From positions 2,816,001 to 2,880,000 of the forward strand of contig OZ242214.1 in the NCBI GenBank assembly GCA_965206595.1: a stretch of DNA of 64,000 bases, given 5' to 3'. This DNA comes from Candidatus Latescibacterota bacterium. GTDB taxonomy: Bacteria; Latescibacterota; UBA2968; UBA8231. Of the stretch, positions 4,106 to 48,694 are shown in pieces (position 1 is the stretch's first letter; each line of letters opens with the position of its first letter). Below the pieces are notes generated by a model. That model was given only the letters and a program-made list of their open reading frames with translations. It searched no databases and was not told the origin of the DNA. Made by a program: the position numbers and the translations under genes.

Positions 4106-4596
4106 GAGGTGAAATCCTTTCGCTGCATTCCCCACCCATTGCTCGCGTAAGTACGCCCGCCTGACTGGATGAGGCTGAAATGGCTGGTATCGGCACTTGT
4201 CGGTACCCATTTGCATTTGAGACTGCTCTCCATCTCCACTCTAGCAGTTGCGTCATAGTCGTCAGTGTAGCTCAATATGATTCGGAAGTCGGGATTTTCA
4301 ACGCGAGGCCACAAAACCCCGCCCGGACGGTACATCTCTAGGTCCCTTTCAGAGGTGTTGACGACATATTGCACGGCTTTAATCTCGGTTGATCCGCAGA
4401 AAAGCGTGAGGTCCACCATTTTCAAATACCCCTTCTTAGCCAGCACCTCGACGTCATGAGCGTAGTTGAGGGCCATGTACTCAGTGATGGCCCCGGAACT
4501 CTGGGCGATCATCACGAGGTCGGCAGTAAAGCGCCGCACGACCGTTTCGATGTCGGAGATTGTGTAGGAATAGGTCCCTGTTGCCGTATAGGTCAT
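4102..4596 (-). CDS. cap7: Bacterial HORMA protein (CBASS Cap7)
   Basis: MTYTATGTYSYTISDIETV N-terminus, RPGGVLWP, C-terminal YASNGWGMQRKDF; lies between CD-NTase and TRIP13. Confidence 0.88.
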   Translation of the reverse strand: MTYTATGTYSYTISDIETVVRRFTADLVMIAQSSGAITEYMALNYAHDVEVLAKKGYLKMVDLTLFCGSTEIKAVQYVVNTSERDLEMYRPGGVLWPRVENPDFRIILSYTDDYDATARVEMESSLKCKWVPTSADTSHFSLIQSGGRTYASNGWGMQRKDFTS

Positions 4597-4600
4597 TTTT

Positions 4601-19627: not shown

Positions 19628-19668
19628 GATTCGGTCACTCCTTCGCCGCGTTGCGCGGGGTGCGCGCG

Positions 19669-19840
19669 TCGCGGTTCTCCTTTCTACCGCCCTGCCTCAT
19701 TCTGCGAAACCATGCCATCTTTCGTTTCTCCTGGATTTAAAGATCGCACCGGAAACGCGGCTCCGGGTATCACCTGATCAGGTGATTTTTTTTTTCTGGT
19801 CCCCTGATCAGGTGACATCCCTGTCACCCGATCGGTTGAC
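19669..19840 (-). promoter_or_regulatory. Promoter-like segment, copy A, with three 18-bp palindromic sites
   Basis: ATCACCTGATCAGGTGAT (19769-19786, perfect), GTCCCCTGATCAGGTGAC (19799-19816), GTCACCCGATCGGTTGAC (19823-19840); homologous to 23461-23603. Confidence 0.7.
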
Positions 19841-19921
19841 GTTTCCGAAAAACGGGGGATTGGCCGGAAAAAGTCCGGCGCCGTGGGCTCCGCCCCCAGG
19901 AAACCGACTCGACCGCGCTCT

Positions 19922-20150
19922 TTCCTTGATACGACCCCACGAAGCCGACTCCACTGCAGTTTCCAGTCCACCAACAGGGACAAGCAACCCATCGGCAAAC
20001 TGGACCGGCCCATACTCGGAATCGTGGTCTATATGGCCCGGGTAAAAGAAAGATTGCGTCATAACCCCGTTCCTGAGAGTCCTCATCAAACACCGCTACC
20101 ATCAACCCTACAATACCATTCGGCCGCAGTTCCGAGATCATGGTCTTGTC
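19922..20150 (-). pseudogene. 3' remnant of an HxGDRxYP/SWGRIK-family gene
   Basis: Two frames give ISELRPNGIVGLMVAVFDED and FADGLLVPVGGLETAVESASWGRIKE, matching the C-terminus of 21857..22810. Confidence 0.72.
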
Positions 20151-20189
20151 CCTGCTGTCGGGAAGGTGATCGGATTGGAGATCGACGGT

Positions 20190-20455
20190 GATCACTCGTG
20201 GGCGAACGCGTGGTGCTGACGTAGTGCGACAGAGAAGTAATTCCCGTGCCGTCGGTGCGGCAAAGCGACCCGGATACGCCGGGGCGTATTTGACGGTTTT
20301 GAACTGGCTCTCCGAATAGGGGTTATCGTCGGCCGTCCGCGGGCTGCTTTAGCTGGCCAGGATATCGAGATCGACCAGCAGTTGCGAGAAGGTCTTGGCC
20401 GTCATCGGAGCGCCCCGGTCCTGGTGCAGGGTCAGCTGCCCCGGCTCGATGGCTT
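20190..20455 (-). mobile_element. IS3-family transposase (integrase core) remnant
   Basis: Hand translation: IEPGQLTLHQDRGAPMTAKTFSQLLVDLDILAS*SSPRTADDNPYSESQFKTVKYAPAYPGRF, with an internal stop. Confidence 0.78.
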
Positions 20456-20633
20456 GGCCGGAAAACCGGGATGTCGGCTGGCTGGCAAGTTCACAGGATT
20501 CCCCGATCTCGGGTAAACGGCACGGCTATCCAGAGACGGGAGGCACGTCTGGTGGGTAGGGACCCAAATTGACCGGAGCCAAATCTGGTTGCCCTCGTGC
20601 TACAGGACACCGTCTCCAGATCGAACCGTGGCT

Positions 20634-21506
20634 TTATCGATTCGGCCTAGAAACGAAACATAGACTGTCGCCTGTCGGAGCCCAAGCAGGCTGGCGGTCT
20701 TGGCTGCCCATGGTCAATCGGGTGACAGCTGTGCCGTCCGGCGCCATGCGGTAGATGCTGAACAGGCCGTCCCGATTGGACGCAAAAGCGATTTCTCCGT
20801 TGCGGGACCAAGCCGGTTCCCGATCTTCATCGGGGTGGTTCGTCATCCGGGTCACGACCCCGGTTTCCACTTCAAGGACGCAGATTTCAATGTTGCCGTA
20901 ACGATCCGATTCGAAAGCCAGCCGGCGACCGTCCGGGGACCACGTTGCCCGGGCATCATAGGCCGGGTGGTTGGTCAGGTTGCGGAGGTTTTTCCCCGTT
21001 TGATCGGCGAGGAACAGCTCCATGTCGCCCGTGCGGTACGTGGTGAACGCGAAGTGCTGGCCATCGGGGGACCAAGCGGGAAAGATCCCGTCCGGGACCA
21101 TTAGCTCCGGCCCGTTTGCGGCCCCCAGCAGGCCCATGCAGAAAATGTCCCATCCCCCGGCTTCCATTTCACCCCCGAAGGCAATTTCCGCCCCGCCCGG
21201 CTTGGCGGATACCCCGGCCACGCTAATGAAGGGGGAACGTATGGGAATGTTCAGGAGTAAAACCCGAGCCGTGGACACTAGATGGAAGGCGTTCACCCTG
21301 CTCGTATGGGCAACGTACAAGACGCCCCGTCCGTCCGGCATCCAGCAGGGCATGTCCGTGCTGTCCACCACCGAAACGCGCCTGGGAGAACCCCTGTCCT
21401 GGGAAAGAACGAATACGCTTCCCCCGCGGTCATGGGCTGTCGCAGGAGGGCCATCGGCTAGCAACATTACAAGCAGCAGGAAGCCGGCCAAGATCGAAGG
21501 GCTCAT
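20634..21506 (-). CDS. Secreted TolB-like beta-propeller (PD40 repeats)
   Basis: Signal peptide; repeats PAWSPDG, ATWSPDG, PAWSRNG, FASNRDG. Confidence 0.82.
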   Translation of the reverse strand: MSPSILAGFLLLVMLLADGPPATAHDRGGSVFVLSQDRGSPRRVSVVDSTDMPCWMPDGRGVLYVAHTSRVNAFHLVSTARVLLLNIPIRSPFISVAGVSAKPGGAEIAFGGEMEAGGWDIFCMGLLGAANGPELMVPDGIFPAWSPDGQHFAFTTYRTGDMELFLADQTGKNLRNLTNHPAYDARATWSPDGRRLAFESDRYGNIEICVLEVETGVVTRMTNHPDEDREPAWSRNGEIAFASNRDGLFSIYRMAPDGTAVTRLTMGSQDRQPAWAPTGDSLCFVSRPNR

Positions 21507-21508
21507 GC

Positions 21509-21740
21509 CTTACTCCTCCTGCAAGGCGGCTTATTCCACGCCCCTGGATACGGATTCCACCGCGCTGTCTTCGCCTTCGCCTGATTCTACACTCCCGTCA
21601 GGACCCAGCAAAAGGCCGTCAATATAGCGGTCCCGGGTCAGCGAAAACGTCCGGCATCCCAAGCGTCCACGGCAGTCCTGGCTTCCTCCCCTTGGGTAGC
21701 AGTCGTAAATAACCACGTGGAAACCGATTACCTTATAATC
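21509..21740 (-). pseudogene. Degenerate 3' remnant of an SWGRIK-family gene
   Basis: KVIGFHVVIYDCYP...DRYIDGLLLGPDG...SAVESVSRG, then a disrupted stretch, then AALQEE* as expected for SWGRIKAALQEE. Confidence 0.6.
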
Positions 21741-21856
21741 CTCGAATGCCCGACGCATCCAAGACAGGTAGGGCTGGGTGTTGGATAAATCAAAGATACG
21801 GGCCCTTACCGAAACGGTCGGCTCTTTCTTAAAGGGATGGCCAAACCCTCCCTTGG

Positions 21857-22810
21857 CTACTCCATCTCCAAGGAGGCTTTGATTCGCCCCCAAGAATTCG
21901 ACGAGATCGCAGAGACTTCCGGTTCGTCCAATTCGGGCAGCAGAATACCATCGAAAAAACGATCCGCTTTATAGCCCAATATAGTAAAGAAGGTATCCCA
22001 GTCTGTGTCAGAAGTGGCTTCGGGACTCCACTGCATCCAGGAATTATCAGGTGGGTCATAATCATGCACTGCAATCGTAAAGCCGACGATCTGACCGGCA
22101 GCCAGATCGCTGATCACGGCTCCCTCGACGCTATCCCACGCATCACCCTTCTGGTCGAATGGCGTAACATAAAGCTCGATCACGCTGATAAAGGGAGCTT
22201 CTCCTGCTACCCCACCACCGCCGTCCCCATAGGGAGGCAACGCTGTCCAGGCAAACGAATCGGTATAAAACCTGGTGCCAAAGTCATCCAAGTTCGGACC
22301 GTTGGTATGGGCAATGGCTGCATATCTCTGAGTTCGTCCAGAGAGATCCAGCCACTCCTCCTCTGAGCAACTAGAACAGCCAGCACTCCCACTATGATCG
22401 CCGTCGAATGCCAGCATGATGCTGTCATAGTTATACATATTATCCCGTGAGGATGTGGCCCAATCCACGTTGTAATCGTGTCCGTTCTTGTATACGTCAT
22501 CGCTGGCCACAAAAGCCACATATAACCGTGCTGGTTCGTCGTGCCAGGCCAGCCAGATGCGGAAGTCAAGGTCGGCAGGATCAGGTGCCGAACCTTCATT
22601 TTCTTCCGTGAAATCCAGCAGGGTCATGGTGGGTTCGCCGACCAACTCGTACCACTCGTCCACCGACCCGTCGTCGAGCCGGATCTCCTCGAGCATCTCG
22701 TCGCTGAGGTAGGCGATCGGGTACACACGATCACCCACATGGGCACCGAATGGCACTGTCAGCGGGAGAAGGAGGCCCAGAGCCAATAGAGAACGACCGA
22801 TAGGGACCAT
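21857..22810 (-). CDS. Secreted acidic protein (CBM9/DOMON-like, tentative) with C-terminal SWGRIK motif
   Basis: Signal peptide, HVGDRVYPI, DGSVDEW, DLDFRIWLAW, DGDHSG, PPYGDGGG, ELYVTPFD, FFDGILL, SWGRIKASL. Confidence 0.75.
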   Translation of the reverse strand: MVPIGRSLLALGLLLPLTVPFGAHVGDRVYPIAYLSDEMLEEIRLDDGSVDEWYELVGEPTMTLLDFTEENEGSAPDPADLDFRIWLAWHDEPARLYVAFVASDDVYKNGHDYNVDWATSSRDNMYNYDSIMLAFDGDHSGSAGCSSCSEEEWLDLSGRTQRYAAIAHTNGPNLDDFGTRFYTDSFAWTALPPYGDGGGGVAGEAPFISVIELYVTPFDQKGDAWDSVEGAVISDLAAGQIVGFTIAVHDYDPPDNSWMQWSPEATSDTDWDTFFTILGYKADRFFDGILLPELDEPEVSAISSNSWGRIKASLEME

Positions 22811-22844
22811 CGTTTTATCATCACTTCCGTTTTATCATCACTTC
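22811..22844. repeat. 17-bp perfect tandem duplication upstream of a start codon
   Basis: CGTTTTATCATCACTTC x2. Confidence 0.9.
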
Positions 22845-22925
22845 AAGTCAACCAAATGGAGGACCGCTTTCATGGCCAACCTAAGCTTAGTTAGGGCAAA
22901 GGGCAACCCATAAATGCACCTTCCA

Positions 22926-22978
22926 CCGGACGGACGAGCACTCCACGCAAAAATGGGCATGGAGACTCGTCCGTCGGG
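22926..22978 (-). terminator. Stem-loop between peptide gene and partner gene
   Basis: GACGGACGAG..CTCCA / TGGAG.CTCGTCCGTC arms; no clear U-tract. Confidence 0.5.
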
Positions 22979-23012
22979 GGTAGACCTTGGTGCCTGAGGT
23001 CCCTTCAGGGTT

Positions 23013-23204
23013 TTAGTGCGAGCACTTGCAATGTCCCTCATCGCAATCGTGCCATTCTGAGCTTCCGTGTCCTGCTTGGGAACACGCATAGGCGCAAGCC
23101 CCAGACGAACTGGCGGTGGTGGTGAACGAATGTGCGCTCAACATGAACGCAGTGCCAAAGGAAACCACCGCCAAAACGGTGAGAAACACTCTGAGCTGTC
23201 GCAT
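23013..23204 (-). CDS. Secreted defensin-like Cys-rich peptide (63 aa)
   Basis: AAGGAG RBS; signal peptide MRQLRVFLTVLAVVSFGTAFMLSAHS; core ACAYACSQAGHGSSEWHDCDEGHCKCSH with CxxxC...CxC. Confidence 0.72.
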   Translation of the reverse strand: MRQLRVFLTVLAVVSFGTAFMLSAHSFTTTASSSGACAYACSQAGHGSSEWHDCDEGHCKCSH

Positions 23205-23460
23205 GTCTTGCTCCTTTTTCCCCGATTTTAGTTTGCCTGAACTTGACCTGTACCGGGAAACCAAGCCATTCAGGTACGAGAGGAGAAATCAATGACATGA
23301 TCTGGATACCTCTGGGCGCCGATTTGGTTTGTCTAAGGGGCACCAAGCGCTTGCGATTTTCCAGAGAAAAGGTGATCCATACTGCCGATTGTTTGCGCCA
23401 AGTCATCCCTGCCAATCCCCAGATGCTTTCCTTGGGGGCACGGGGGCAGCAACGTCGTCC

Positions 23461-23603
23461 TCGCGGTTTCCTTCTCCTTTCTCCCGCCCTGGGCTCATTC
23501 CCAAACCATGCCATCTTTCGTTCGTCCTGGATTTAAGATCGCACCGAAATGGCGGCTTCGGTATCACCCGATCGGGTGATTTTTTATACCCTGATCAGGG
23601 TAT
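23461..23603 (-). promoter_or_regulatory. Promoter-like segment, copy B, with two perfect 18-bp palindromes
   Basis: ATCACCCGATCGGGTGAT (23563-23580) and ATACCCTGATCAGGGTAT (23586-23603); shares AAACCATGCCATCTTTCGTT and CCTGGATTTAA(A)GATCGCACC with copy A. Confidence 0.7.
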
Positions 23604-38176: not shown

Positions 38177-38920
38177 CTATTTGAGCTTGACGATTTCGCG
38201 CTGCGCGGCGCTCAGACGAGCGTCGAGGCCGGCGCTGAAGCGCAGCCCCTGGCCGCCCCAGTCGGGCATGTAACCTGTGCTGTAACAATAATAAAGGGTC
38301 CGTCTCGGACGGCGGGAAGTGTTGACCGTTGAACCGTGCGTGAGGGCTTCGGTGAAAATGATCGCGTCCCCCGCCCTCGCCGGGAGCGGCACCAGGGCCG
38401 GATCCTCCTCCGGGTGCGGGCCCCAGGGCCGCGGGAAGTTCGCCTTGTGGGTGCCCGGCACCACGGCGAAGCAGCCGTCCTCCGGGCCGCTGTCGACGGT
38501 CGGGAACACCGCCTTGGTCAGCGTCGACATCATCTGGCCGTTGTGGCAGCGGTACTGGCACTTCGGATGGATCGGCGTGCCGTGCATGTGCATGTGCGTG
38601 TACCCGCCCCCCCAGCGATAGATCGCGTAGGTGTGGTTGAGGCGCCAGGGCCCGCCGGTGACGGTCTCGACCACGTCGAGGACCTCGGGAAGCTCCATCA
38701 GCGGCTGCATCGCCGCGTCGGCTTCCATGATGTTGGAGAGGTAGAGCTCCTGGTCGGTCTTTTCGGTGCCGAGGACCAGCGGCTCGGGGTACTCCCGCGG
38801 ATCCATCCCCTCGAAGCGGTCGAGCACTTCGTTGGCGGCCGCCACGAAGTCGGGCGGGACCACCTGCTCGAGCAGGATGTAGCCGTTGAGATCGAAAAGG
38901 TAGGTCTGCTCCGCGTTCAT
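38177..38920 (-). CDS. PhyH-family dioxygenase lacking HxD
   Basis: YLFDLNGY, DGCFAVVPGTHK, AGDAIIFTEALTHG, RRTLYY. Confidence 0.82.
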   Translation of the reverse strand: MNAEQTYLFDLNGYILLEQVVPPDFVAAANEVLDRFEGMDPREYPEPLVLGTEKTDQELYLSNIMEADAAMQPLMELPEVLDVVETVTGGPWRLNHTYAIYRWGGGYTHMHMHGTPIHPKCQYRCHNGQMMSTLTKAVFPTVDSGPEDGCFAVVPGTHKANFPRPWGPHPEEDPALVPLPARAGDAIIFTEALTHGSTVNTSRRPRRTLYYCYSTGYMPDWGGQGLRFSAGLDARLSAAQREIVKLK

Positions 38921-38951
38921 TGCCGACTCCCGACTATTCTCTGGTGAAACC

Positions 38952-40301
38952 TCATCCCTCGCTCTCCAGCGCCAAGTCCCGCTCCAGGCCCGCGCCCCAT
39001 GCGAGCAGCTCCTCGTCGCCGCCCATGGGGGCGATGAACTGAATCCCCAGTGGCATTCCCGAGGCGGAGGAACTGCCCGCGGGCAGCCCCAGCACCGGCA
39101 TTCCCGCGTGGGTCCAGGGCAGGTTCATGCTCGGGTCCCCGGTGGTCGCCAGTCCTTTCGGAGCCGGGCCGGTGGCTGCCGGACAGGCCCAGAGGTCGAG
39201 TCCCTCCGCAACCATCAGGGCCTCGAGCTCCTGGCGCAACTCGCCGCGGCCGCGGCGGGCCTTCTCGAGCGCCGCCCGCGACACGCCGCGGCCCTGCTCG
39301 ACCAGGGCCGCGGTGCCCTCGTCGTAGAGGCCGGCGTACTCCTCGAACCAGGGCTCGTGGACCCGGGCCATCTCGGCGACCATCATCTGCCGGTGGCGGT
39401 AGTCGATCTCCTCGATGTCCGCGAACGCCGGCGCCTCTACCACCTCGTACCCAGCGCTTCGCAGGGCTTCCAGCTGGTTTTCGAAATCCTCCCGGGCAGC
39501 CGGCTCGGTCTGGTCGAGATAGGGGCCCTCCGGCACCCCGAGGACCGGCCGGCCCGGGGCGGAAACCGCGGCCCGCCATTCGCCGCAGAGCACCGCGGCA
39601 ACTCGTGCAGCCGTGGCGGCGTCGCGGGTGAAGGTGCCGATGGTGTCGACCGAAGGGGAGCAGTGGATGAACCCGGAGATGTCGATGCGGCCGTAGCTTG
39701 GCTTGAAGCCGGTGATCCCGCAGAACGCCGCCGGCCGGACGATCGAGCCGATGGTCTGCGAGCCGAGCGCCAGCGGGCAGTAGCCGGCGGCCACGGCCGC
39801 GGCCGAGCCGCTGCTGGAGCCTCCGGGACTGTGCCCGAGGTGGTGGGGATTGCGCGTCGCCGCCGGCTTGAAGCAGGCGAACTCGGTCGTCACTGACTTT
39901 CCGAGCACCAGGGCACCCGCGGCCCGCAGCGCCCGGATGCATCCGCCCTCGGGCCCGGCGAGCACCTCCGCGGGCAGCTGCGAGCCGGCGCGGGTCTCGA
40001 ACCCGTCTACGTGGATGATGTCCTTGACCGCGACCAGCATGCCGAACAGCGGCAGGTCGGCGGCGGCTTCCGTCTGCAGCCGGCCCGCCTCCTCGAGCAG
40101 ACGGCCGCGGCGGTCTCCCTCGGGCAGCAGCGCCCGGATGTCGCTGTCGAGCGCCTCGAGGCGGCGGCAGGCCTCATCTATCTCTTCCATCAGGCCCGGC
40201 ATTCCGCCCAAACTCGCCCTGTCCGTGCCCGGTTCTACGCGCCCGTTGGAGTATCCCATCCCTCCTGCCTCCCTGTCATTGCCGCGGGTGTCCATGTCCA
40301 A
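38952..40301 (-). CDS. Amidase signature family protein (start uncertain)
   Basis: VAVKD, GKSVTTEFA, PGGSSSGSAAAVAAG, GSQTIGSIVRPAAFCG. Confidence 0.9.
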   Translation of the reverse strand: MDMDTRGNDREAGGMGYSNGRVEPGTDRASLGGMPGLMEEIDEACRRLEALDSDIRALLPEGDRRGRLLEEAGRLQTEAAADLPLFGMLVAVKDIIHVDGFETRAGSQLPAEVLAGPEGGCIRALRAAGALVLGKSVTTEFACFKPAATRNPHHLGHSPGGSSSGSAAAVAAGYCPLALGSQTIGSIVRPAAFCGITGFKPSYGRIDISGFIHCSPSVDTIGTFTRDAATAARVAAVLCGEWRAAVSAPGRPVLGVPEGPYLDQTEPAAREDFENQLEALRSAGYEVVEAPAFADIEEIDYRHRQMMVAEMARVHEPWFEEYAGLYDEGTAALVEQGRGVSRAALEKARRGRGELRQELEALMVAEGLDLWACPAATGPAPKGLATTGDPSMNLPWTHAGMPVLGLPAGSSSASGMPLGIQFIAPMGGDEELLAWGAGLERDLALESEG

Positions 40302-40584
40302 AGGTCAGTGGGTCCATACATAGTCTCAGCCATGCGCTTCGCCCTGCACAGCTCGCAGAGCCAGGAAGCGGTATCGAATCGAAGCCGGTGCCACAATCCA
40401 AGCAGCGTCGAGATAGTTTGCCGCCGCCTTTGTATCAGGATTCCCAGAAATTGAGCAAAACCGATACGGCGCATATGAACACGAACAGTTCCAAAAGCCA
40501 TTCAAAGCCGACACCGCTACCTGCCGTTCAACAGCGATCCTGAAATCCTGGCCTGTTTCCCGCTTTTGCCGCCAGCCCGCCCCA

Positions 40585-41478
40585 TTACTTCCGGGGGCGC
40601 TTCTTCGCCGCTTTTTTCGGCGGCTTCCAATTGGCGAGGTGGCGCTGCCAGCTCTTCTCCAGCTCCCCCCTGATCGCCTTGACGTCGCGGAAGCGGTCGC
40701 CGAACACCGACAGGTGGTAGCCGCCGGGGATCTGCTCCGGGCAGACGAACAGCTCGCGGCCCGGCGCCGCCGCCTTCAGCCACAGCGCCAGCAGCTGGTC
40801 GGCGAACTCCATGCAGTCGAGGAACTCCGGGGTCAGCTTGCCCCCCGGCCCGAGGGCGGGGATCATGGCGTGGTGCCCGTTGAAGGGGCGGAAGTGGATC
40901 TGGTTGGCGAGCTGCACCAGGTCGGGGCGCTCGATCAGGCGCTTGAAGTAGGGGGGCGACAGGTGCTTGACGACGGCCGGGTGGGAGAAATCCCACGTCA
41001 TCTTCAGCGGCCGCTTCTCCTCCTTCTCGAACCCCTCGGCCAGGGCGTAGGCCTTCTCCGGGGTCTCCGTGCAGGTGTCGCGGTGGACCTCGATCGAGAC
41101 ATCCATGTCGAGCTCGCCGGCGACCCGCATGACCTCGCGGGCGCAGGCGACCGCCTCGGCGGTCCCGGTGTCGTGGTCGAGCATCTGCACGTTGACGACG
41201 CGGGCGTTGTACTTCCCAATCCGCTTGAGCTTGCGCTCAGCCTCCTGCGGCCCGCCCATGTCGGTGGTGCAGGCGAAGACGAGGCCGGACTCGGCGACCA
41301 CCTCGGGCGGGAACATGATGACGCGCCCGAGGAAACCGTCGAAGCCGGCGTTCTTTATGCGCTTCAGCTTCTGGGGAAACGTCCACTCCACCCCCTTGGT
41401 GCCGTAGCCGAGCAGAGTGCCGACCGAGCACATGTGGCGCAGAACCGGGGGCTCGGCCTGCTGTTTCGATTTTGCCAT
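40585..41478 (-). CDS. Sugar-phosphate isomerase/epimerase-like TIM-barrel protein
   Basis: AGFDG, IEVHRD, WDFSH, HFR, PEQ metal-site pattern; start at ATG 41478 after GAAGGAG. Confidence 0.7.
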   Translation of the reverse strand: MAKSKQQAEPPVLRHMCSVGTLLGYGTKGVEWTFPQKLKRIKNAGFDGFLGRVIMFPPEVVAESGLVFACTTDMGGPQEAERKLKRIGKYNARVVNVQMLDHDTGTAEAVACAREVMRVAGELDMDVSIEVHRDTCTETPEKAYALAEGFEKEEKRPLKMTWDFSHPAVVKHLSPPYFKRLIERPDLVQLANQIHFRPFNGHHAMIPALGPGGKLTPEFLDCMEFADQLLALWLKAAAPGRELFVCPEQIPGGYHLSVFGDRFRDVKAIRGELEKSWQRHLANWKPPKKAAKKRPRK

Positions 41479-41612
41479 GAGATCTCCTTCCGTCCGTGAA
41501 GCCGCCGGCGCCGGAAGCTCAAGAAAGGCAGGCGGCCTGGATGGGTGATTGTCCGTTCCGCAGCCGCAACCAGCCGGAGCCGGGAACGGCACTCATGTCA
41601 GGGAAATCTACA

Positions 41613-41690
41613 TCAATGCCGAACGAGCTGATAATCCCGCTCGTACACGAAGTCGTCGTCGCGGTCGGGGTTGTGAAACTCCAAGCAGGT
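41613..41690 (-). repeat. Decayed copy of the 3' end of the tetraheme gene (copy 1)
   Basis: 71/78 identical to 43016-43093; reads TCLEFHNPDRDDDFVYERDYQLVRH*. Confidence 0.88.
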
Positions 41691-41701
41691 CAGTTCGAAC
41701 G

Positions 41702-41780
41702 AAAGGGAATCCCTTTGTCGAGGCTATACCACTGCAAGAGGGGGGGGGGCCTTCGGCGGGAACCAAGGTGGGGGTACAGA
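41702..41780 (-). pseudogene. TlpA paralog remnant abutting the cytochrome 3' remnant
   Basis: Allowing for indels in the homopolymer runs it reads YPTLVPAEG...LLQWYSLDKGIP, versus YPILMPAIGDSTLLGRYGVDKGIP in 45774..46301. Confidence 0.72.
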
Positions 41781-41889
41781 CGAGCCGAGGCGGAGTACCT
41801 GGTTACTTTCATTTCACCTACGGTGCCGGGGGCGTCGTCTCTCAATTACTGTTGCCTGAGAAGGTGAATACGTGATCCCTTCCTGGTAG

Positions 41890-42903
41890 TTAATATGGCC
41901 AACGATGGTAAGCCCTAAACAGATAGGAGTAAGGTCCAGCATCGATTCCGCTGCGACTTTCGGAACCGGTCAAGCTACCTATAGTCTTGAAGGCCTCAGC
42001 AACAGGAGAAGCCATAGCAGAAATGACAGCCCCAGCGAGAGATAACGCAAATGATGCTGGTCTCTTCCATGACTTTCGGGCGCACCTACGAAGGTCATTG
42101 GCAAGGTCGTTCAACTCGTTCTGCCGAATCTCGAAAGCAATCTCTCGTTCCTCTTCCTCCATTCGGGATAGTTCAAATGCGAATTTTCGAATAGACAGCA
42201 TATAGCGTTTGTGTGCTTCAAGATTCTGTTCGCGGAAATCCAGTATTTCATCAAAAGGCACCGATCCGAGATCAACAGAAACAGCATTGAGGTCAAATTC
42301 AACAACGTTTCCGGGAGAAGGTGAAGAATCAGTTTTTATGGACAATAACTCCGATAGCGACCTGACCATTTTTTCCAAGTCAGTTGCCGGGCTAAGGTTA
42401 GCGTTGATGGTGCCTCCGTAAGGTCGCAAGATTTGCGAGAGAAGGACAAGAACGAGTGATCGCACCTTTGGATGCATTGGAATAGAAACACTGTCCTCGC
42501 TATCTTTGGCCAGTCCACGCTCCTTTAATTCCTCGAAAATCATCTCGAAAAGTCTCTCATCTCCATAAGCTCCGAGGCGTGACATCGATATTTCATGAAA
42601 TGCAGTATCTTCTTTCGCGAGATCGTCCAAGACTCCAGAAACGATAATGTCCGTCAAAATACCAGCAAGGTTTTCAGTCGCGTCTTTGTCGATGGCTATC
42701 TCTGGTTCGATAATCTCCAGCAATCCCTGCTCTTTCAAGCCCACGACTACGGGAGCGTCAATTTGCTCTGGGCGATCTCTCATATAATTTGGGACAAGTA
42801 AGGCAATGCCGTCGAAAAAAAGCATGAGATTCTTGACCCAATCTCCATATCTCCACATTGGGTTTGGATAATAGAAAGCTATCTCTCTTTTTTCAGTTTC
42901 CAT
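41890..42903 (-). CDS. Low-GC hypothetical protein (DUF6236-like N-terminus, tentative)
   Basis: 337-aa ORF with RBS; AFYYPN...WVKNLMLFFDGIALLVP; VPFDEILDFRE; visibly AT-richer than its flanks. Confidence 0.65.
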   Translation of the reverse strand: METEKREIAFYYPNPMWRYGDWVKNLMLFFDGIALLVPNYMRDRPEQIDAPVVVGLKEQGLLEIIEPEIAIDKDATENLAGILTDIIVSGVLDDLAKEDTAFHEISMSRLGAYGDERLFEMIFEELKERGLAKDSEDSVSIPMHPKVRSLVLVLLSQILRPYGGTINANLSPATDLEKMVRSLSELLSIKTDSSPSPGNVVEFDLNAVSVDLGSVPFDEILDFREQNLEAHKRYMLSIRKFAFELSRMEEEEREIAFEIRQNELNDLANDLRRCARKSWKRPASFALSLAGAVISAMASPVAEAFKTIGSLTGSESRSGIDAGPYSYLFRAYHRWPY

Positions 42904-43015
42904 CGCTTTCCCTTCTCTTGATTAATTTCTGTTCCGGGATACACTATTCTGACGAAATAGTTTAGCCGGGAATTGTCTGATCCTGGTTGAAACAGCACAG
43001 GCACCCCTCGTTACC

Positions 43016-45382
43016 TCAATGGCTTACGAGCTGATAATCCCGCTCGTACACGAAGTCGTCGTCGTGATCGGGGTTGTGACACTCCAGGCAGGTTCTTTCG
43101 GACGGGAGGCGCCGGACCGTCTCGCTGGAAGGACGCTCGACGTGATTGCTTCCGGGGCCGTGACACAACTCGCACTGCACGTTCGCCAGGCTGCGGTCCG
43201 GTTCGAGAATCGAGAATCCGCTGTCGCGGTTCAGCCCGGCAACGTGGCATTTCACGCACTTGGAAAACTGGTGACGGTGCGCGTCAAGCAGGGTCGTATA
43301 AGCGCCGGCGTGCCGGGTCGTCTGCCACTGCTCCCACTGCGCCGAGTGGCAGGTACGGCACTCCTGCGTCCCCACGTACTTCCTGTCGTCGTGAATGGGA
43401 TCCCACTCGAAGAGCGGCGGGATGTTTCCTTCCAGCAGCTCCTCCTGCTCGGCCACGGACCGGTAGTAGGAATCGAGGTAGGCTTTCATGTCCGGGTCTT
43501 CGCGCATCTGGTACAACGCCAGCAGGTAGTTGCCCTCGAAGGAGGTGAAGCGGCCGGTCTCGTCTATCCCGATGTCGACGGTATGCAGGCCGTACACGTC
43601 GGCGTTCGCGTAGACGACCAGCACGTCGTTAAGAAAGCCGTACATCGATTCAGTCTGCTTCCTTGGATCTACTTGCCCGTCGGCCCCTACCATGTCGAGG
43701 GCGGGAGCGTAGTGCCCCGTAGTGATTATCAGGTCCAGGGCCGGGAACTCCTGCACCAAGTCATGGACGAGGCCGGTATTCAGCTCGCCGATGACCCCGA
43801 CAAAGTCCGCCTCCTCTCTCAATCCGGGCAGGTATGCCCGCACCGCCTTCTTTGGATCGGCGATATGGAGGTCGTGAGTGTTGTCTTCATAACGCGTGGG
43901 TTCGATGATCGCCGTCGGTTGCAGCAGCCCTATGAAACCGATCGTGTACGGCCCCGCCTCGATGGAATACGTCGGCGCCCCTACCAGGGAATCCCCGTGA
44001 TGGACATTGGCGTTTATCAACGGCACGGGACTGTTCCGGGCCTGGATCTGAAGAAACTCGCGGCCGTGGTAGGTCTCGTTTCGCGCGATGACGGAAAAGC
44101 CGTACTCCATCCGCCTCAGCGCCTCCAGGTAAGTCGCCAGTTCGCTTGCCGTCAGGTCATCCATTGCCGGCACGTCCTGTTCGTAGGGAAAGGCGTTGCC
44201 GGCATCGATGACGGCCACGCTCCCGCGCCTCTTTCTGATCTGGTCGATGAGGGTGGCGCGGCGGGTGATGCCGCCCGACATCTCGGACTTGCAGCCGCAT
44301 GCTTCGAGAAAGCTCCTCGTCTTTCCGGTCACGATCAGGGTGATCGTGTCTACCGCGGTTTTCTCGGACCGCGACCATGGCAGTTGTGGCGGTTGATCTC
44401 CGGGGGCAGGACCGTCCGAGTGCCAGAGAGGTTCGGGAGGAACTGACCCAGGGTCGGGGTTGGTGTGCTCGTACAGCGCGGACAGGAGATCGGCGCCGGC
44501 GACCGTCTCTATCGCACTCCCCAGATCGACGCCCTTCCGTTGCCGGTAGGCGAGCTCCAGAACATCCTGCAGATCCTGTTCCCCATCCGTGCTCCTGGAG
44601 ATCTGCCCGTCGAGGTAGTGGGCGAGGGCCAATCCACTGTAACGGACAAGAGACTGATCGCCCTTGCCCTGTGTATAGTAGGTCGTCGGGACAATGCCCT
44701 TGCTGAAGTGGGACAACCGGAATCGGTTGTGATTCCTGTACGCTTCATACAGGTACGGCTCCAGATCGGAAATGATCCCGTGCTCGAGCAGGCCCTGAAG
44801 GCCCAGGTACGTGCTCGCCCCTTCCACGAACCACAAATCGGATGCCTGCGACAGTTCCATGCGGTGGGGGGCGTAGCGCAGCCACCGGTAGGCGATGCGG
44901 GTGGCCACGGAAAGCCATCTCCCCGCGGTGGCCGGCTCCATTTCCATTGCCTGTCCGTGAGACGTGCCCGGCATGTGGATGTTCATGCCATCCGCGGTCT
45001 TGGGGGTCAGAATGACCGTGTACGGTTCCGGGACCGGCGCCTGCATGGTCCTCGTCATGTACTCGTAGAGGCTCCATACCTTGCTGGCCAGCTCCTCCTG
45101 CCGTGGGCTCGCCCACCCGTCGTACAGCACCACCCGCACGGGAGCCTCGCCGATGGTCATCTCACGCGCCGTCAAGGCCCCCATTGCGACCGCGCCGTTG
45201 ATCAGGTCCTCCCTGCCGGTGCCGTACAGGCGCGGCTCGTACGTGCCTGCTTCGCCTTCTACCTCGTTCCAGGTGGTCTCGACCCCCCAACCTTCCGGGG
45301 GCCGGATCGAGACGGTCACGTGCCCGAGCCACCCTTCGGGCACCAGGAACAGGTTGCGACCGGAGACGAGGTGGAAATCCAC
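43016..45382 (-). CDS. M61/gluzincin-like domain + UshA/5'-nucleotidase-like domain (CGC) + tetraheme cytochrome c; probably the 3' part of a frameshifted gene
   Basis: LWFVEGASTY; LEACGC...GGITRRAT, IDAGN, INANV; CRTCH, CVKCH, CELCHGPGS, CLECH. Confidence 0.78.
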   Translation of the reverse strand: MDFHLVSGRNLFLVPEGWLGHVTVSIRPPEGWGVETTWNEVEGEAGTYEPRLYGTGREDLINGAVAMGALTAREMTIGEAPVRVVLYDGWASPRQEELASKVWSLYEYMTRTMQAPVPEPYTVILTPKTADGMNIHMPGTSHGQAMEMEPATAGRWLSVATRIAYRWLRYAPHRMELSQASDLWFVEGASTYLGLQGLLEHGIISDLEPYLYEAYRNHNRFRLSHFSKGIVPTTYYTQGKGDQSLVRYSGLALAHYLDGQISRSTDGEQDLQDVLELAYRQRKGVDLGSAIETVAGADLLSALYEHTNPDPGSVPPEPLWHSDGPAPGDQPPQLPWSRSEKTAVDTITLIVTGKTRSFLEACGCKSEMSGGITRRATLIDQIRKRRGSVAVIDAGNAFPYEQDVPAMDDLTASELATYLEALRRMEYGFSVIARNETYHGREFLQIQARNSPVPLINANVHHGDSLVGAPTYSIEAGPYTIGFIGLLQPTAIIEPTRYEDNTHDLHIADPKKAVRAYLPGLREEADFVGVIGELNTGLVHDLVQEFPALDLIITTGHYAPALDMVGADGQVDPRKQTESMYGFLNDVLVVYANADVYGLHTVDIGIDETGRFTSFEGNYLLALYQMREDPDMKAYLDSYYRSVAEQEELLEGNIPPLFEWDPIHDDRKYVGTQECRTCHSAQWEQWQTTRHAGAYTTLLDAHRHQFSKCVKCHVAGLNRDSGFSILEPDRSLANVQCELCHGPGSNHVERPSSETVRRLPSERTCLECHNPDHDDDFVYERDYQLVSH

Positions 45383-45756
45383 CCGCTGACCATCGTGGGA
45401 TGGCGGCCGTGCCCGCCGCCGACCGGCCGCCCCGGCTGCACCTTGTACTCGACGCGCAACTCGCTGCCCGGCGCGCTCACGCGGTAGGCCGTGCCCGCGG
45501 GCGAGACCCGTTTCGCATGCGGAACAGGCCTGCCTTTGGAGTCGCTGATTTGCAGCCCGGTCAGGCCGATGAACTGCTCGGGCTCAAATGCCTGCAAGGA
45601 CAGGGATTCAGCATCGATTCCATCGATCCGCAACCCGACTGCTATCGACTCAGTATCAGCGGATTCTACCCGGACATCGTACGCGAGCCGCAGGCCCGGG
45701 TCCGAGCAAGCGGAGAAAAGCAAGGCGGCCATCGGGAAAAGGAGATGCAGTGCCAT
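45316..45756 (-). CDS. Lipoprotein N-terminal part of the cytochrome fusion (frameshift near 45380)
   Basis: Lipobox LLFSAC; M61 N-domain-like LRVEYKV; overlaps the next ORF by 67 bp, and that ORF has no export signal. Confidence 0.6.
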   Translation of the reverse strand: MALHLLFPMAALLFSACSDPGLRLAYDVRVESADTESIAVGLRIDGIDAESLSLQAFEPEQFIGLTGLQISDSKGRPVPHAKRVSPAGTAYRVSAPGSELRVEYKVQPGRPVGGGHGRHPTMVSGWISTSSPVATCSWCPKGGSGT

Positions 45757-45773
45757 GCCGGCTTTCTCCCTGC

Positions 45774-46301
45774 TTACCGGGAAGGTCCGAGAAGAGTTTC
45801 GATCACCGCGGACAGGCTGTCCGCCGCGGTCACCACGCCGCGTTGCTCCAAGTGGACTTCGCCGTTCCCGTCCACGAGAACCGACAGAGGAATCCCTTTG
45901 TCAACCCCATATCGACCTAAAAGGGTGGAGTCGCCGATGGCGGGCATCAGGATCGGGTACGGAACTCCGAGGTTCTCGATCCACAACTCCACTGCGAGAC
46001 GGGTTGACGACACCGCTATCCCCCATACCTCCAACCCCCGTTCGTGATACCGGGTGTAAAGATCGTTGAGGATCGGCTGCTCAATCCTACAGGGACCGCA
46101 CCAGGTACCCCAGAAATTGAGAAGCAAGACCTTTCCCTCATGTGCGGAAAGCATGAGGGAATCGCCGGTGATGGTGGCAAGGGTAAAGTCCGGTGCTTTA
46201 TTTGCGGCTGCGGGTGGTTCGGCACCAGGAACACGGAAATCCTGACAAGATGCGCACACGAGGATTGAGAGTACAGACCGGAAGGGGGTGAAACGAGCCA
46301 T
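45774..46301 (-). CDS. TlpA-family thiol-disulfide oxidoreductase (probable lipoprotein)
   Basis: APDFTL, LLNFWGTWCGPCRIEQP, cis-Pro GIP. Confidence 0.9.
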   Translation of the reverse strand: MARFTPFRSVLSILVCASCQDFRVPGAEPPAAANKAPDFTLATITGDSLMLSAHEGKVLLLNFWGTWCGPCRIEQPILNDLYTRYHERGLEVWGIAVSSTRLAVELWIENLGVPYPILMPAIGDSTLLGRYGVDKGIPLSVLVDGNGEVHLEQRGVVTAADSLSAVIETLLGPSR

Positions 46302-46375
46302 GTTCCATTGGCTTTCTCTTGCCACCTTAAACCTTACGGAACTGGCGAAGAAGGGGGATCAGAAAACCAGGAGGG

Positions 46376-47356
46376 TCAGTCCAGCAAAGAAGCCTTGATC
46401 AAGGCCCAGGAATCCGTTTTCACAACGGAGCCGGGATCGCCTGTAGACTCGTCTCCGATCAGGATGCCGTCCATCCATGCATCCGCATCTCCGGGCGTGT
46501 CGTTAAGGGTCAGGCCCGAATAGTCTCCCAAGATGAACAATTCCGCCGCTTCATAATCCCCGCCGCTCGTATCCTGATCATCGAAGTCCCAAACCTCCAA
46601 CTGAAACCCTATGATTTTTCCAGGAAACAGATCCGAAACCACGCTGTTTTCAGGTTCCTTGCGGATCAGCATATCGAAAGGGGTGGCGTAGAATTCAACG
46701 ACCCAGAACACCGGATTCTCCCCCGAAACCGAGCCGCCGCCGTCCCCGTACGGAGGGTAACTCCACCACGGAGAATCACCCCAAGGTTCTAGTAACGGGA
46801 GTGATACATGATTCCCGTCGGCCGGAATCGAGAAGGCGTGGTACCTTTGCGCATTCATATCAAATATCCCCGAGTCGTCGTCCAAACCCCAGATACGGTT
46901 TCTAGGGTCCCATGAAGGAGCCCCATCATGGTCTCCGTCGACTTTGAGGTACATGTGGTCCTGATGGCCACCTAGTGGCCCGCCACGGTGCTCCGAGTCA
47001 GCAGGGCCTACGAAAACATCGTCGCCGAAGATTCCGGCAACATAGAGGCGCGCCGGGTTGCGGCCCCAGCCCAGCCAGATCCTGAAATCCAGGTTCGAGG
47101 GATCGTAAGTTTTGGTGACGGACTCCGACTGAAGAGATTCGAAGAGCGTAAAATCGAGCGCCGTAAAGGACGACTCCCCAATCAATTCACCCCAGTCATC
47201 CACTACTCCATCCTTGAGGTCGATGCCCGTCTCAGCGCTGACTTCGAAAATGGGGTAGATCCTGTCGCCCTGATGTCCGTGCACCGACAAGGGATCGCCC
47301 AAAGTCAATGCCGTTACCAGAAATCCTGTACTCTCCATTAATTTCATTATTCTCAT
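46376..47356 (-). CDS. Secreted acidic HxGDRxYP/SWGRIK-family protein (paralog of 21857..22810)
   Basis: HQGDRIYPI, DGVVDDW, NLDFRIWLGW, DGDHDG, PPYGDGGG, EFYATPFD, WMDGILI, SWALIKASL. Confidence 0.78.
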   Translation of the reverse strand: MRIMKLMESTGFLVTALTLGDPLSVHGHQGDRIYPIFEVSAETGIDLKDGVVDDWGELIGESSFTALDFTLFESLQSESVTKTYDPSNLDFRIWLGWGRNPARLYVAGIFGDDVFVGPADSEHRGGPLGGHQDHMYLKVDGDHDGAPSWDPRNRIWGLDDDSGIFDMNAQRYHAFSIPADGNHVSLPLLEPWGDSPWWSYPPYGDGGGSVSGENPVFWVVEFYATPFDMLIRKEPENSVVSDLFPGKIIGFQLEVWDFDDQDTSGGDYEAAELFILGDYSGLTLNDTPGDADAWMDGILIGDESTGDPGSVVKTDSWALIKASLLD

Positions 47357-47367
47357 CTCCTGTCATA

Positions 47368-47400
47368 CAAAAAAGCAGGGGCAAAACTGCCCCTGCTTTT
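47368..47400 (-). terminator. Intrinsic terminator after the peptide gene
   Basis: Minus strand AAAAGCAGGGGCA-GTTT-TGCCCCTGCTTTTTT. Confidence 0.8.
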
Positions 47401-47468
47401 CCAAGACACCAGTCAGAGAGAGCCAGCGAGAAATCGCTATCCAACCCTGCAGATAAGCCCGCCTTTCT

Positions 47469-47756
47469 CTAACACGAGAAGGTCCTACATCTCGAGCCCT
47501 CGAAACTGCAAAAGGTGAAGGACCATATTTCCCCTACACATTTATTGCGGTAAGTACAAATCTCCCATTGGCAGTTAGAGTTTGCCACAGGGGTCTCCAG
47601 CATCGAGTCCAGAGCCGCGTACGGCCCGATGTCCGGAGTCTCCGCCTCCGTGAACGAGGTGAAGGAGAACACCCCCAAGACCGCCAAGGTGATGATGAAC
47701 GCCGCCAGCTTGAGCGGCAGGATGAGCCGCGGCAACGGCAAGATGAAATCTTTCAT
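47469..47756 (-). CDS. Secreted Cys-rich peptide precursor (95 aa, six-Cys core)
   Basis: Hydrophobic signal, acidic pro-region, core CQWEICTYRNKCVGEIWSFTFCSFEGSRCRTFSC ending in Cys. Confidence 0.75.
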   Translation of the reverse strand: MKDFILPLPRLILPLKLAAFIITLAVLGVFSFTSFTEAETPDIGPYAALDSMLETPVANSNCQWEICTYRNKCVGEIWSFTFCSFEGSRCRTFSC

Positions 47757-47881
47757 GATCTTCCTGCTTTCTCCAAAACTGAGATGGGGTTGCAAGTCTA
47801 TCTACTACTCGATTCAGTGCGCACGGGACAGAAACGAGCGCGTCGCCGTTACCATCTCCTTTCTCCTGCCCAAGTCGGTCA

Positions 47882-47923
47882 TCAATGTCGCACATTCTGA
47901 TAATCCCGCTGGTTCATGAAGTC
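47882..47923 (-). repeat. Third, more diverged copy of the cytochrome gene 3' end
   Basis: 34/42 identical to 41613-41654; reads DFMNQRDYQNVRH* versus DFVYERDYQLVSH*. Confidence 0.7.
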
Positions 47924-48214
47924 CAGTTTCCGGGGGGCCGGATCGCCGCAAGTACTGCTTCCTTCGACTCCCCCGCGACCCTGTCTCATTGTCAGGAGTA
48001 AGAAAAAAAAAGCAGTGAGTCAAGAGGTTTTTGCGAGCCGACCCACGCTCCCCATCAAAACAGGATGCCGAGCCTCGATTTTTTTTAGAGCCCCCGCCAT
48101 TGGAGGTCGATCAGCCGCTTCAGGAGCTAGGCATCGCCGCCTTGACTTGCGGATTTCGAGACTCGTAACTTACCGTAAAATCAGGTTCTTAGAGAAAAAT
48201 CCAGGGAGTGGAAA

Positions 48215-48694
48215 ATGGGACGGACGGCCAGTCTTCTGGCGGTGATGATGACGGTGTGGCTGCTGTGGTCGGGACAGTACACCTGGCTGATAGTGGGCTT
48301 CGGACTGCTCTCCTGCCTGCTGGTCGCCATTATCGCCCGCCGCATGCGCATCCTCGATTTCGAAGGCCACCCCGTTCACCTCGCGCGGCGGCTGCCGGCC
48401 TACTGTCTCTGGCTGCTCTGGGCGATCGTCCGCTCCAACCTCGACGTCGCCCGGCGCATCCTCCATCCGCGGTTGCCGGTCAGTCCCCGGATCATCCGGG
48501 TCAAGGCGAGCCAGCGCACCGATCTCGGCAAGGTCGTCTTCGCCAACTCCATCACCCTGACGCCGGGAACCCTGGCGCTCGAGGTCGAAGGGGACGAGAT
48601 CGAGGTGCACGCCCTGACCCGGGAGAGCGCCGCGGACCTCGAGTCCGGGGAAATGGACCGGCGCGTGACCTGGGTCGAGGGGGAGGAATCCTGA
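48215..48694 (+). CDS. mnhE: Na+/H+ antiporter subunit E
   Basis: IVRSNLDVA, FANSITLTPGT, VHAL. Confidence 0.92.
   Translation: MGRTASLLAVMMTVWLLWSGQYTWLIVGFGLLSCLLVAIIARRMRILDFEGHPVHLARRLPAYCLWLLWAIVRSNLDVARRILHPRLPVSPRIIRVKASQRTDLGKVVFANSITLTPGTLALEVEGDEIEVHALTRESAADLESGEMDRRVTWVEGEES

Follow-up and report, generated by a model that had tools for sequence, protein, structure and literature searches.

Cytochrome gene 3' ends as probable deletion scars in an accessory islet of a Candidatus Latescibacterota genome

Deletional decay of duplicated genes in variable islets leaves gene remnants in bacterial genomes, and some integrative elements duplicate the 3' end of their target gene. A locus that invites comparison with both lies in the genome of an uncultured Candidatus Latescibacterota bacterium (GenBank assembly GCA_965206595.1, contig OZ242214.1; this genome is referred to as G000), where the 3' end of a multihaem cytochrome gene occurs three times. 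All coordinates without a genome or locus handle are those of the window, i.e., the whole 64-kb stretch that was analysed (G000 2816001-2880000), and all three gene ends lie on its minus strand. G001 and G002 are congeners; G004, G035, G090 and G108 are distant relatives. The three ends are probably deletion scars in a fast-turnover accessory islet around a cassette (43012 to ~48058), which encodes a six-Cys peptide (p108), the protein p326, a TlpA protein and a UshA-like multihaem fusion protein, the cytochrome.

The likeness to general deletional decay of islets lies in a lower-GC islet between core genes, whose presence varies among close relatives, and in truncated pieces, frameshifts, an insertion sequence (IS) fragment and the lack of a dedicated recombinase; the locus differs in that its remnants cluster at the last ~100 nucleotides (nt) of one gene and in that its cassette was re-copied, with its scar, to a second locus. 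With 3'-end-duplicating integrative elements and integron cassettes it shares direct repeats of a gene 3' end that bracket inserted DNA, but here no integrase is present, lengths and joints vary, the repeats are 82-91% alike and other sites are without the target. Both conserved genes of the cassette match the models of a described gene pair, NF041054 (TlpA/ResA-like) and NF041198 (UshA-like (seleno)protein), although they score below the respective cut-offs of 300 and 275 bits; these families can have selenocysteine where the cassette proteins have cysteine, and the fusion protein, unlike the NF041198 family, has an extra N-terminal domain of ~340 residues. In the orphan cdiA-CT/cdiI and rhs-CT modules of contact-dependent inhibition (CDI) and Rhs systems, as described by Poole et al. 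(2011, PMC3150448), a conserved motif (VENN), a variable toxin end and an immunity gene are found downstream of the main gene. Compared with these modules, the present locus is alike in having main-gene fragments in the same locus beside small variable genes and IS debris, and in a module content that differs between strains; it differs in that the fragment is an invariant terminus ending in its own stop codon, in that the upstream stub precedes a whole cassette, and in that no toxin/immunity pair is known.

The gene ends and the sequences next to them are the following.
41520-41612, minus strand: downstream end of the islet, holding the spacer that normally lies 3' of the cytochrome stop codon.
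41613-41706, minus strand: copy 1, a stub with the last 30-31 codons and the stop codon of the cytochrome gene.
~41702-41782, minus strand: probable TlpA remnant, YPHLGSRRRPPPLLQWYSLDKGIP (..YPHL..LLQWYSLDKGIP), joined to copy 1.
43016-45382, minus strand: copy 2, the distal open reading frame (ORF) of a broken fusion gene, 788 amino acids (aa), with matches to Cytochrome_C554 and NF041198.
47855-47814, minus strand: 13-codon ORF, MVTATRSFLSRAH followed by a stop codon, 3' of copy 3 and behind a GGAG-rich site.
47882-47923, minus strand: copy 3, a stub with the last 13 codons and the stop codon of a lost upstream cytochrome gene.
47924-48134, minus strand: upstream end of the islet, common to locus 2 as far as ~48058 and, from 48003 to 48134, to site A of G002.

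The first-pass annotation, made from the letters of the window alone, had reported the three gene ends, and these were confirmed at their positions on the minus strand. Regarding copy 1, the count of 71 identical positions out of 78 (41613-41690 vs 43016-43093) stood, and the match extends to 81 of 94 nt (41613-41706 vs 43016-43109), with a 39-nt exact run. Regarding copy 3, 33 of 42 nt are identical to the gene end in copy 2, whereas the 34 of 42 counted earlier applies only to the comparison with copy 1. The three gene ends translate to LSFELTCLEFHNPDRDDDFVYERDYQLVRH, LPSERTCLECHNPDHDDDFVYERDYQLVSH and RKLDFMNQRDYQNVRH, each followed by a stop. Local alignment of the gene end gave scores of 68 (copy-1 side) and 24 (copy-3 side), whereas dinucleotide-shuffled sequences averaged 8.5-8.9 and never exceeded 15; none of 500 shuffles equalled the observed score for either copy, and neither match is due to chance. 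The haem-motif cysteine is changed to Phe or Ser in copy 1 and in a stub of G004. Taken by pair, the repeats span 98 nt at 86% identity around the DUF6236 segment that separates copies 1 and 2, and 44 nt at 82-91% around the cassette, and the stubs of G000, G002 and G004 are of unequal length (42, ~46-60, ~80 and 94 nt). Beyond the stop codon of copy 1, 41581-41612 matches the spacer 3' of the intact cytochrome gene of G002 and 41596-41612 the spacer 3' of the gene at locus 2. The ribosome-binding site and 13-codon ORF that had been noted after copy 3 are present; the ORF is not kept as such, locus 2 having 15 different codons and G002 no start codon.

The earlier judgement that an assembly artefact was unlikely is borne out by unitigs of 1423-1424 nt across 41632-43055, with 0-5 differences, in coded public runs of three studies; the arrangement of copies 1 and 2 is not an assembly artefact. 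Read depth in one further run (X12) was 0-4.7 and ~2 or below across the islet.

Since at least three cytochrome 3' ends are present, at least three copies of the gene once stood in the locus. The fragments are homologous to the intact unit, collinear with it and on the same strand: a TlpA piece precedes a cytochrome end, a cytochrome end precedes p108, and at locus 2 the spacer and the start of p326 come after the cytochrome gene. The TlpA remnant itself is less certain than the cytochrome ends and, judged from sequence comparison, probably genuine. Its score against four TlpA orthologues was equalled by 13, 16, 2 and 0 of 400 shuffles, so that the decayed TlpA fragment described earlier beside copy 1 is best called probable, not certain. 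A 40-nt repeat of 70% identity (41706-41745 vs 45889-45928) includes a 14-nt exact match, and a run of 10 G lies inside the remnant at 41740-41749. The remnant gains credibility from its location and strand and from TlpA preceding the cytochrome gene. Serial gain and erosion of at least three cassettes had been proposed for the locus; the three or more gene ends and the erosion by deletion hold, while gain in turn is not shown and tandem duplication with deletion is the simplest account.

The islet (~41520-48134) has a GC content of 0.44-0.66 vs 0.64-0.74 in its flanks. Along the minus strand it runs from the upstream end through copy 3, p108, a hairpin spacer, p326, TlpA, the fusion gene and an IS end to the DUF6236 gene, the TlpA remnant and copy 1 with its spacer, followed by the TIM-barrel gene. 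The expectation that the interval between the TIM-barrel gene and mnhE would vary among relatives is confirmed by three different states, of ~50 nt in G001, 4.1 kb of other genes in G002 and 6.6 kb in G000. In G001, homology to the window breaks off at 41519 and starts again at 48135, and a search of that genome (93% complete) gave no cytochrome match at E<=1e-5. G002 keeps both islet ends at the same site, with a strongly decayed orthologue of copy 1 in the same place and a part matching 48003-48134; between them lie an UnbV_ASPIC fragment, an NHL protein and a GH95 enzyme. Identity of the flanks to G000 is 95-96% (G001) and 86-92% (G002) at this site, and 89-94% and 91-93%, respectively, at the site of locus 2. 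The UnbV_ASPIC fragment (L042 2631-3053) is 96% identical to G000 2682729-2683148, and its recent transfer or copying is likely because this value far exceeds the flank identity.

A second copy of 43012 to ~48058, which the first-pass annotation did not contain, was found on the other strand 0.62 Mb away (locus 2; G000 3477770-3482902). It is 89.8% identical to the window cassette over 4447 nt, with 0.73-1.00 in 150-nt bins, and its joint is present in runs of the same three studies as the unitigs. Upstream of its p108 it carries a stub of the copy-3 type, with an in-frame TGA, and ~55 nt matching 48003-48058; as the upstream stub and these ~55 nt of local context are shared, locus 2 was probably copied from the window locus. 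The locus-2 cytochrome gene is followed by a copy of the p108-p326 spacer with the initial 14 codons of p326, a piece that stops at the flanking gene's ATG (47308-47467 matches G000 3482904-3482737 at 79.9%). The corresponding site measures 216 nt in G002 and ~1.17 kb in G001, where a small thioredoxin-fold-like gene with a CPxS motif was noted by eye (L045 ~3900-4600). An intact cassette of G002 stands at a third site, between the equivalents of window positions 19650 and 23515, and comprises p108, three tandem p326 genes, TlpA and a fusion gene whose product shows 85% identity.

Both copies of the cassette in G000 are now decaying. The cytochrome gene of the window had been called intact, which it is not: a 10-nt frameshifting deletion near 45381 (loss of ACCTCGGAGA) splits it into ORFs of 146 and 788 aa, and, as the alignment shows, takes away the residues YLGE, which locus 2, G002 and G004 have conserved. 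In locus 2, a run of seven A located 30 codons ahead of the stop (G000 3482600-3482640) contains one extra base, which shifts the cytochrome frame by +1, a 102-nt deletion takes out most of the Cys core of p108, and a second p326 is truncated; the extra base is present in run X8 and not in X11 or X13. The annotation is thereby corrected to one in which neither cytochrome copy of the genome is intact, and for this reason the peptide system of the cassette is probably not working in this genome. The ratio of nonsynonymous to synonymous divergence (dN/dS) between the two loci is 0.20-0.34, so that the frameshifts and other damage are recent. Synonymous divergence (dS) is 0.49 for p326 and 0.14 for TlpA and the cytochrome gene, with amino-acid identities of 76% and 91-94%, respectively. 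A 150-nt block (45729-45878) is 100% identical between loci otherwise ~90% alike, which suggests recent gene conversion. Signs of neutral decay include the TGA in the locus-2 stub, the changed haem cysteines in copy 1 and the G004 stub, and the decayed copy 1 of G002.

Two further sequences, of foreign and IS origin, separate copies 1 and 2.
41890-42903, minus strand: gene of low GC content, encoding 337 aa and weakly matching DUF6236; foreign cargo that separates copies 1 and 2.
42968-43016, plus strand: remnant (49 nt) of the left end of an IS256-family element, whose truncation point coincides exactly with the cytochrome stop codon.
The region of the 337-aa gene has a GC content of 0.44-0.50 vs 0.64-0.74 in the flanks. 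Its product matches Pfam DUF6236 at E 4.6e-4, below the cut-off, and gave one weak PHROGs match of no known function. Homologues occur in 4 of 41 relatives (G000 counted), at other places, and the loci in G010, G002 and G030 (3/3) had no cytochrome-end or IS-end flanks, the sole match being of 12 nt with an E value of 0.06. The IS end, another feature missing from the first-pass annotation, is 84-86% identical over 48-50 nt to seven genomic sites, and its 31-nt core (42986-43016) is 90-94% identical at eight. These sites correspond to the outer end of a ~1424-nt element, whose copies are 97.6-98.7% identical and whose 441-aa ORF matches Transposase_mut (E 3.2e-37).

Across the phylum, a full-length fusion gene was detected in 6 of 168 genomes (G000 counted). 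In all four distant full-length loci (G004, G035, G090 and G108) a gene for a small secreted Cys-rich peptide follows directly 3' of the cytochrome gene. The ancestral order, as far as gene order in living relatives tells, was probably TlpA, cytochrome, peptide, and the stub before p108 can be read as a relic of the cytochrome-peptide order because the peptide gene follows in these four of four loci. In G004 the order is cytochrome, peptide, 1025-aa protein, a remnant of an IS3-type OrfA (HTH_Tnp_1, E 1e-7) that abuts the next item, a cytochrome stub of the last ~26 codons, then a second peptide and a 988-aa protein; it is an event of the same type, and the only partial tandem (peptide and partner genes) that was found. 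The two peptides of G004 (L028 11718-11948 and 15548-15772) have near-identical leaders and unrelated Cys-rich cores, and each is followed by a protein of ~1000 aa whose gene is most diverged in its first 500 nt (0.53-0.69 identity); from the sequences, peptide and partner look like a co-varying pair. The tails of the G035, G090 and G108 genes have no orphan stub within 20 kb.

A scan of metagenomes with a single protein query gave no relative; with an alignment query, 79 loci of ~30% identity were obtained, 71 of them with at least 400 nt downstream. None of these 71 has a convincing orphan tail, the seven raw matches being due to low complexity, to overlap or, in L063 and L107, to a second paralogue, and the stubs are for that reason regarded as specific to this lineage. 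In run X13, one 290-nt contig joins the TlpA start to the last ~22 cytochrome codons and is ~89-92% like the window; being a single contig, it is only a hint of a second TlpA-to-cytochrome deletion with different end points. The 21 letters at its joint are absent from this genome and from all fetched loci.

These observations are best accounted for by duplication, deletion and decay. The ancestral operon unit would have consisted of TlpA, the UshA-like multihaem fusion gene, the small Cys-rich peptide gene and the gene of a partner protein. A tandem duplication in this genus may have put a cytochrome gene before p108, and deletions with unrelated end points would have removed most of the outer copies, leaving the 42-nt stub of copy 3 upstream and, downstream, the TlpA piece fused to the last 30-31 codons of copy 1. 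Between copy 1 and the surviving gene, two insertions took place, of a low-GC foreign gene and of an IS256-family element, and the latter was later reduced to 49 nt. The surviving cassette was copied together with the upstream stub and ~55 nt of context, presumably from the window to the second locus. No dedicated recombinase would be involved; the joints look like products of illegitimate or short-homology recombination, and the stubs may persist at 3' ends since deletions do not extend into the signals of the gene that follows. What the sequences show directly is the homology of the ends, a site that varies, a second cassette copy, frameshifts and an IS end. The case is ordinary genome wear, well documented here, and the mechanism is not new. 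It is a well-resolved example of an accessory operon that was duplicated, moved and eroded in an uncultured IS-rich lineage, with evidence that includes one relative in which the site is empty, one in which its content is replaced, and two copies in decay.

Several points weigh against this account. The break points of all five stubs fall within the last ~100 nt of a 2.8-kb gene, and one-step random deletions would not cluster break points at the gene end; the clustering needs repeated trimming, selection for something at the gene end or a recombination-prone site. The reason for it bears on whether peptide-partner modules have a regular route of exchange. In G004 no part of the duplicated unit is as well conserved as the stub with its spacer (94% vs 49-81% in the peptide gene), which hints at function or gene conversion. 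An intact tandem array of the whole operon occurs in none of 41 relatives or 168 phylum genomes (G000 counted in both). The flank identities are such that G001 may have lost the islet or may never have had it, and the uneven dS, together with the identical 150-nt block, points to later exchange or conversion between the two copies that blurs a simple history.

Three other explanations were weighed against decay by deletion. If the cytochrome 3' end and the 25-70 nt after its stop codon were a portable adapter before each variable peptide-partner module, recombination between adapters would swap the module behind the conserved TlpA-cytochrome pair; this is unlikely, even though every stub break point lies in the last ~100 nt and the stub and spacer of G004 (94%) precede a second peptide with a near-identical leader, a different Cys core and a diverged partner. 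It would also suit the faster divergence of p108 and p326 compared with TlpA and the cytochrome gene (p326 76% vs 91-94%; dS 0.49 vs 0.14) and the wholly different peptide core in G000 and G002. The stubs, however, lack a variable coding part, one copy has an in-frame stop and one is without the haem cysteine; the window stub stands upstream of a whole cassette, not behind a main gene; orphan tails are missing from G035, G090 and G108 and, convincingly, from all 71 metagenome loci (0/71); and remnants of other genes show plain decay. Copy 1 and the G004 stub lie downstream of the full-length gene, copy 3 upstream of a whole cassette. A gene for a variable small Cys peptide and then a partner gene come after copy 3 and likewise after the G004 stub; nothing marks them as toxin and immunity genes, and PADLOC gave no match. 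The analogy with orphan modules of polymorphic toxin loci, drawn in the first-pass annotation, does not carry over, as what is repeated here is the extreme 3' terminus with its stop codon, in one stub with an in-frame TGA. A related proposal, in which the last 40-100 nt and the spacer act as homology anchor, promoter or leader and recombination swaps or deletes modules behind a conserved TlpA-cytochrome maturation pair, is likewise unlikely; if true, it would mean orphan-array-like cassette exchange in a secreted Cys-rich peptide system with no known toxin.

Rearrangement driven by the IS256-family element at the cytochrome stop codon, and by the IS3-type element in G004, is improbable as the source of the duplications and deletions. 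An IS256-family end does abut copy 2, the OrfA remnant (HTH_Tnp_1) abuts the G004 stub, and at least seven further IS copies of 97-99% identity are present in the genome. The IS at copy 2 is, however, cut 49 nt inside its own end, so that the joint there was not made by its own transposase; no IS sequence occurs within 17 kb at locus 2 or within 15 kb on the copy-3 side, and IS elements account for some joints at most. A composite transposon was also considered and rejected, there being a single 49-nt IS end on one side of the window locus and none at locus 2. Least likely of all, and very improbable, is a mobile cassette or islet that targets and restores the cytochrome 3' end, with copies 1, 2 and 3 as direct repeats resembling attachment (att) sites. 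In its favour, direct repeats flank the DUF6236 segment (98 nt, 86% identity) as well as the cassette (44 nt, 82-91%); the latter is found at three different sites in two congeners and has a patchy distribution (6/168 phylum genomes). Set against this, neither locus has an integrase, recombinase or transposase gene in or beside it; the stub break points are unequal, and no sequence is common to the joints of the three sites; a cytochrome gene that could serve as target is missing from the two other insertion sites, and at locus 2 the right joint falls within a remnant of p326, at the flanking gene's start codon; DUF6236 homologues elsewhere are without such repeats (3/3 loci); and the repeats are only 82-91% alike. 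The earlier remark that no integrase is visible nearby agrees with a Pfam scan of the long ORFs in 38177-48694 (10 proteins), which gave no integrase or recombinase, and no multi-copy mobile sequence was seen beside locus 2. No evidence was found for a site-specific or orphan-toxin-like system.

The remaining parts of the cassette are the following.
45316-45756, minus strand: proximal ORF of the fusion gene, 146 aa with a lipoprotein-type start, split off by the deletion.
45774-46325, minus strand: TlpA/ResA-like thiol-disulfide oxidoreductase (WCGPC), by Pfam and NCBIfam.
46376-47356, minus strand: p326, a secreted protein of a very large paralogous family, by tblastn.
47365-47467, minus strand: p108-p326 spacer with a hairpin at 47369-47400, with a second copy 3' of the locus-2 cytochrome gene.
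47469-47795, minus strand: p108, a small secreted six-Cys peptide, with a likely start at the ATG at 47756.

In the distal ORF of the fusion gene, a UshA-like metallophosphatase part, which contains a CGC motif, is combined with a multihaem C-terminus. The fusion protein matches Pfam Cytochrome_C554 at E 9.4e-16 and reaches 214.5 bits with NF041198, below the cut-off of 275. TlpA matches Pfam AhpC-TSA (E 1e-18) and Redoxin (E 8.1e-18) and an NCBIfam ResA subfamily (E 2.1e-29), and NF041054 at E 4.6e-12, below the curated cut-off of 300 bits. For p326, 90 tblastn hits were obtained in this 7-Mb genome, and no match in Pfam, NCBIfam, PADLOC or PHROGs. The leader of p108 is conserved with G002, whereas the Cys core is completely different between the two genomes; p108 had no match in PHROGs. 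PADLOC gave nothing for the DUF6236 protein, p326, p108 or the fusion protein. A scan of 41400-48300 for promoters and terminators found four promoter-like sites vs 3.5 expected, none of them on the minus strand at the stubs, and no sigma-54 promoter was seen before p108 by eye (no tool was used). Two Rfam matches at 47365-47454, ar35 (32.8 bits, gathering threshold 45) and ylbH (20.9 bits, gathering threshold 50), were taken as chance matches on the spacer hairpin; nothing else was found in Rfam at E<=1.

In 14-15 of 71 soil-type metagenome loci (L073, L078, L090-L097, L108, L110, L117, L119, L121 and L124), the fusion gene is immediately followed by a small ORF that has a [GSA]PY[AG] motif and four or more Cys, as judged by a simple pattern search; as small Cys ORFs follow the fusion gene there, the pairing of fusion gene and peptide appears widespread beyond the phylum sample. 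The IS256-family element is found at G000 2222796-2224219 and at seven other places, and was probably active recently because its copies are 97.6-98.7% identical. Beside it stands a second repeat of ~1.47 kb, with some 20 copies of 85-98% identity. The window interval 19650-23515, whose equivalent holds the intact cassette in G002, has other content here, including a p326-like gene (21857-22810); the interval is flanked by response-regulator paralogues, one truncated and one full.

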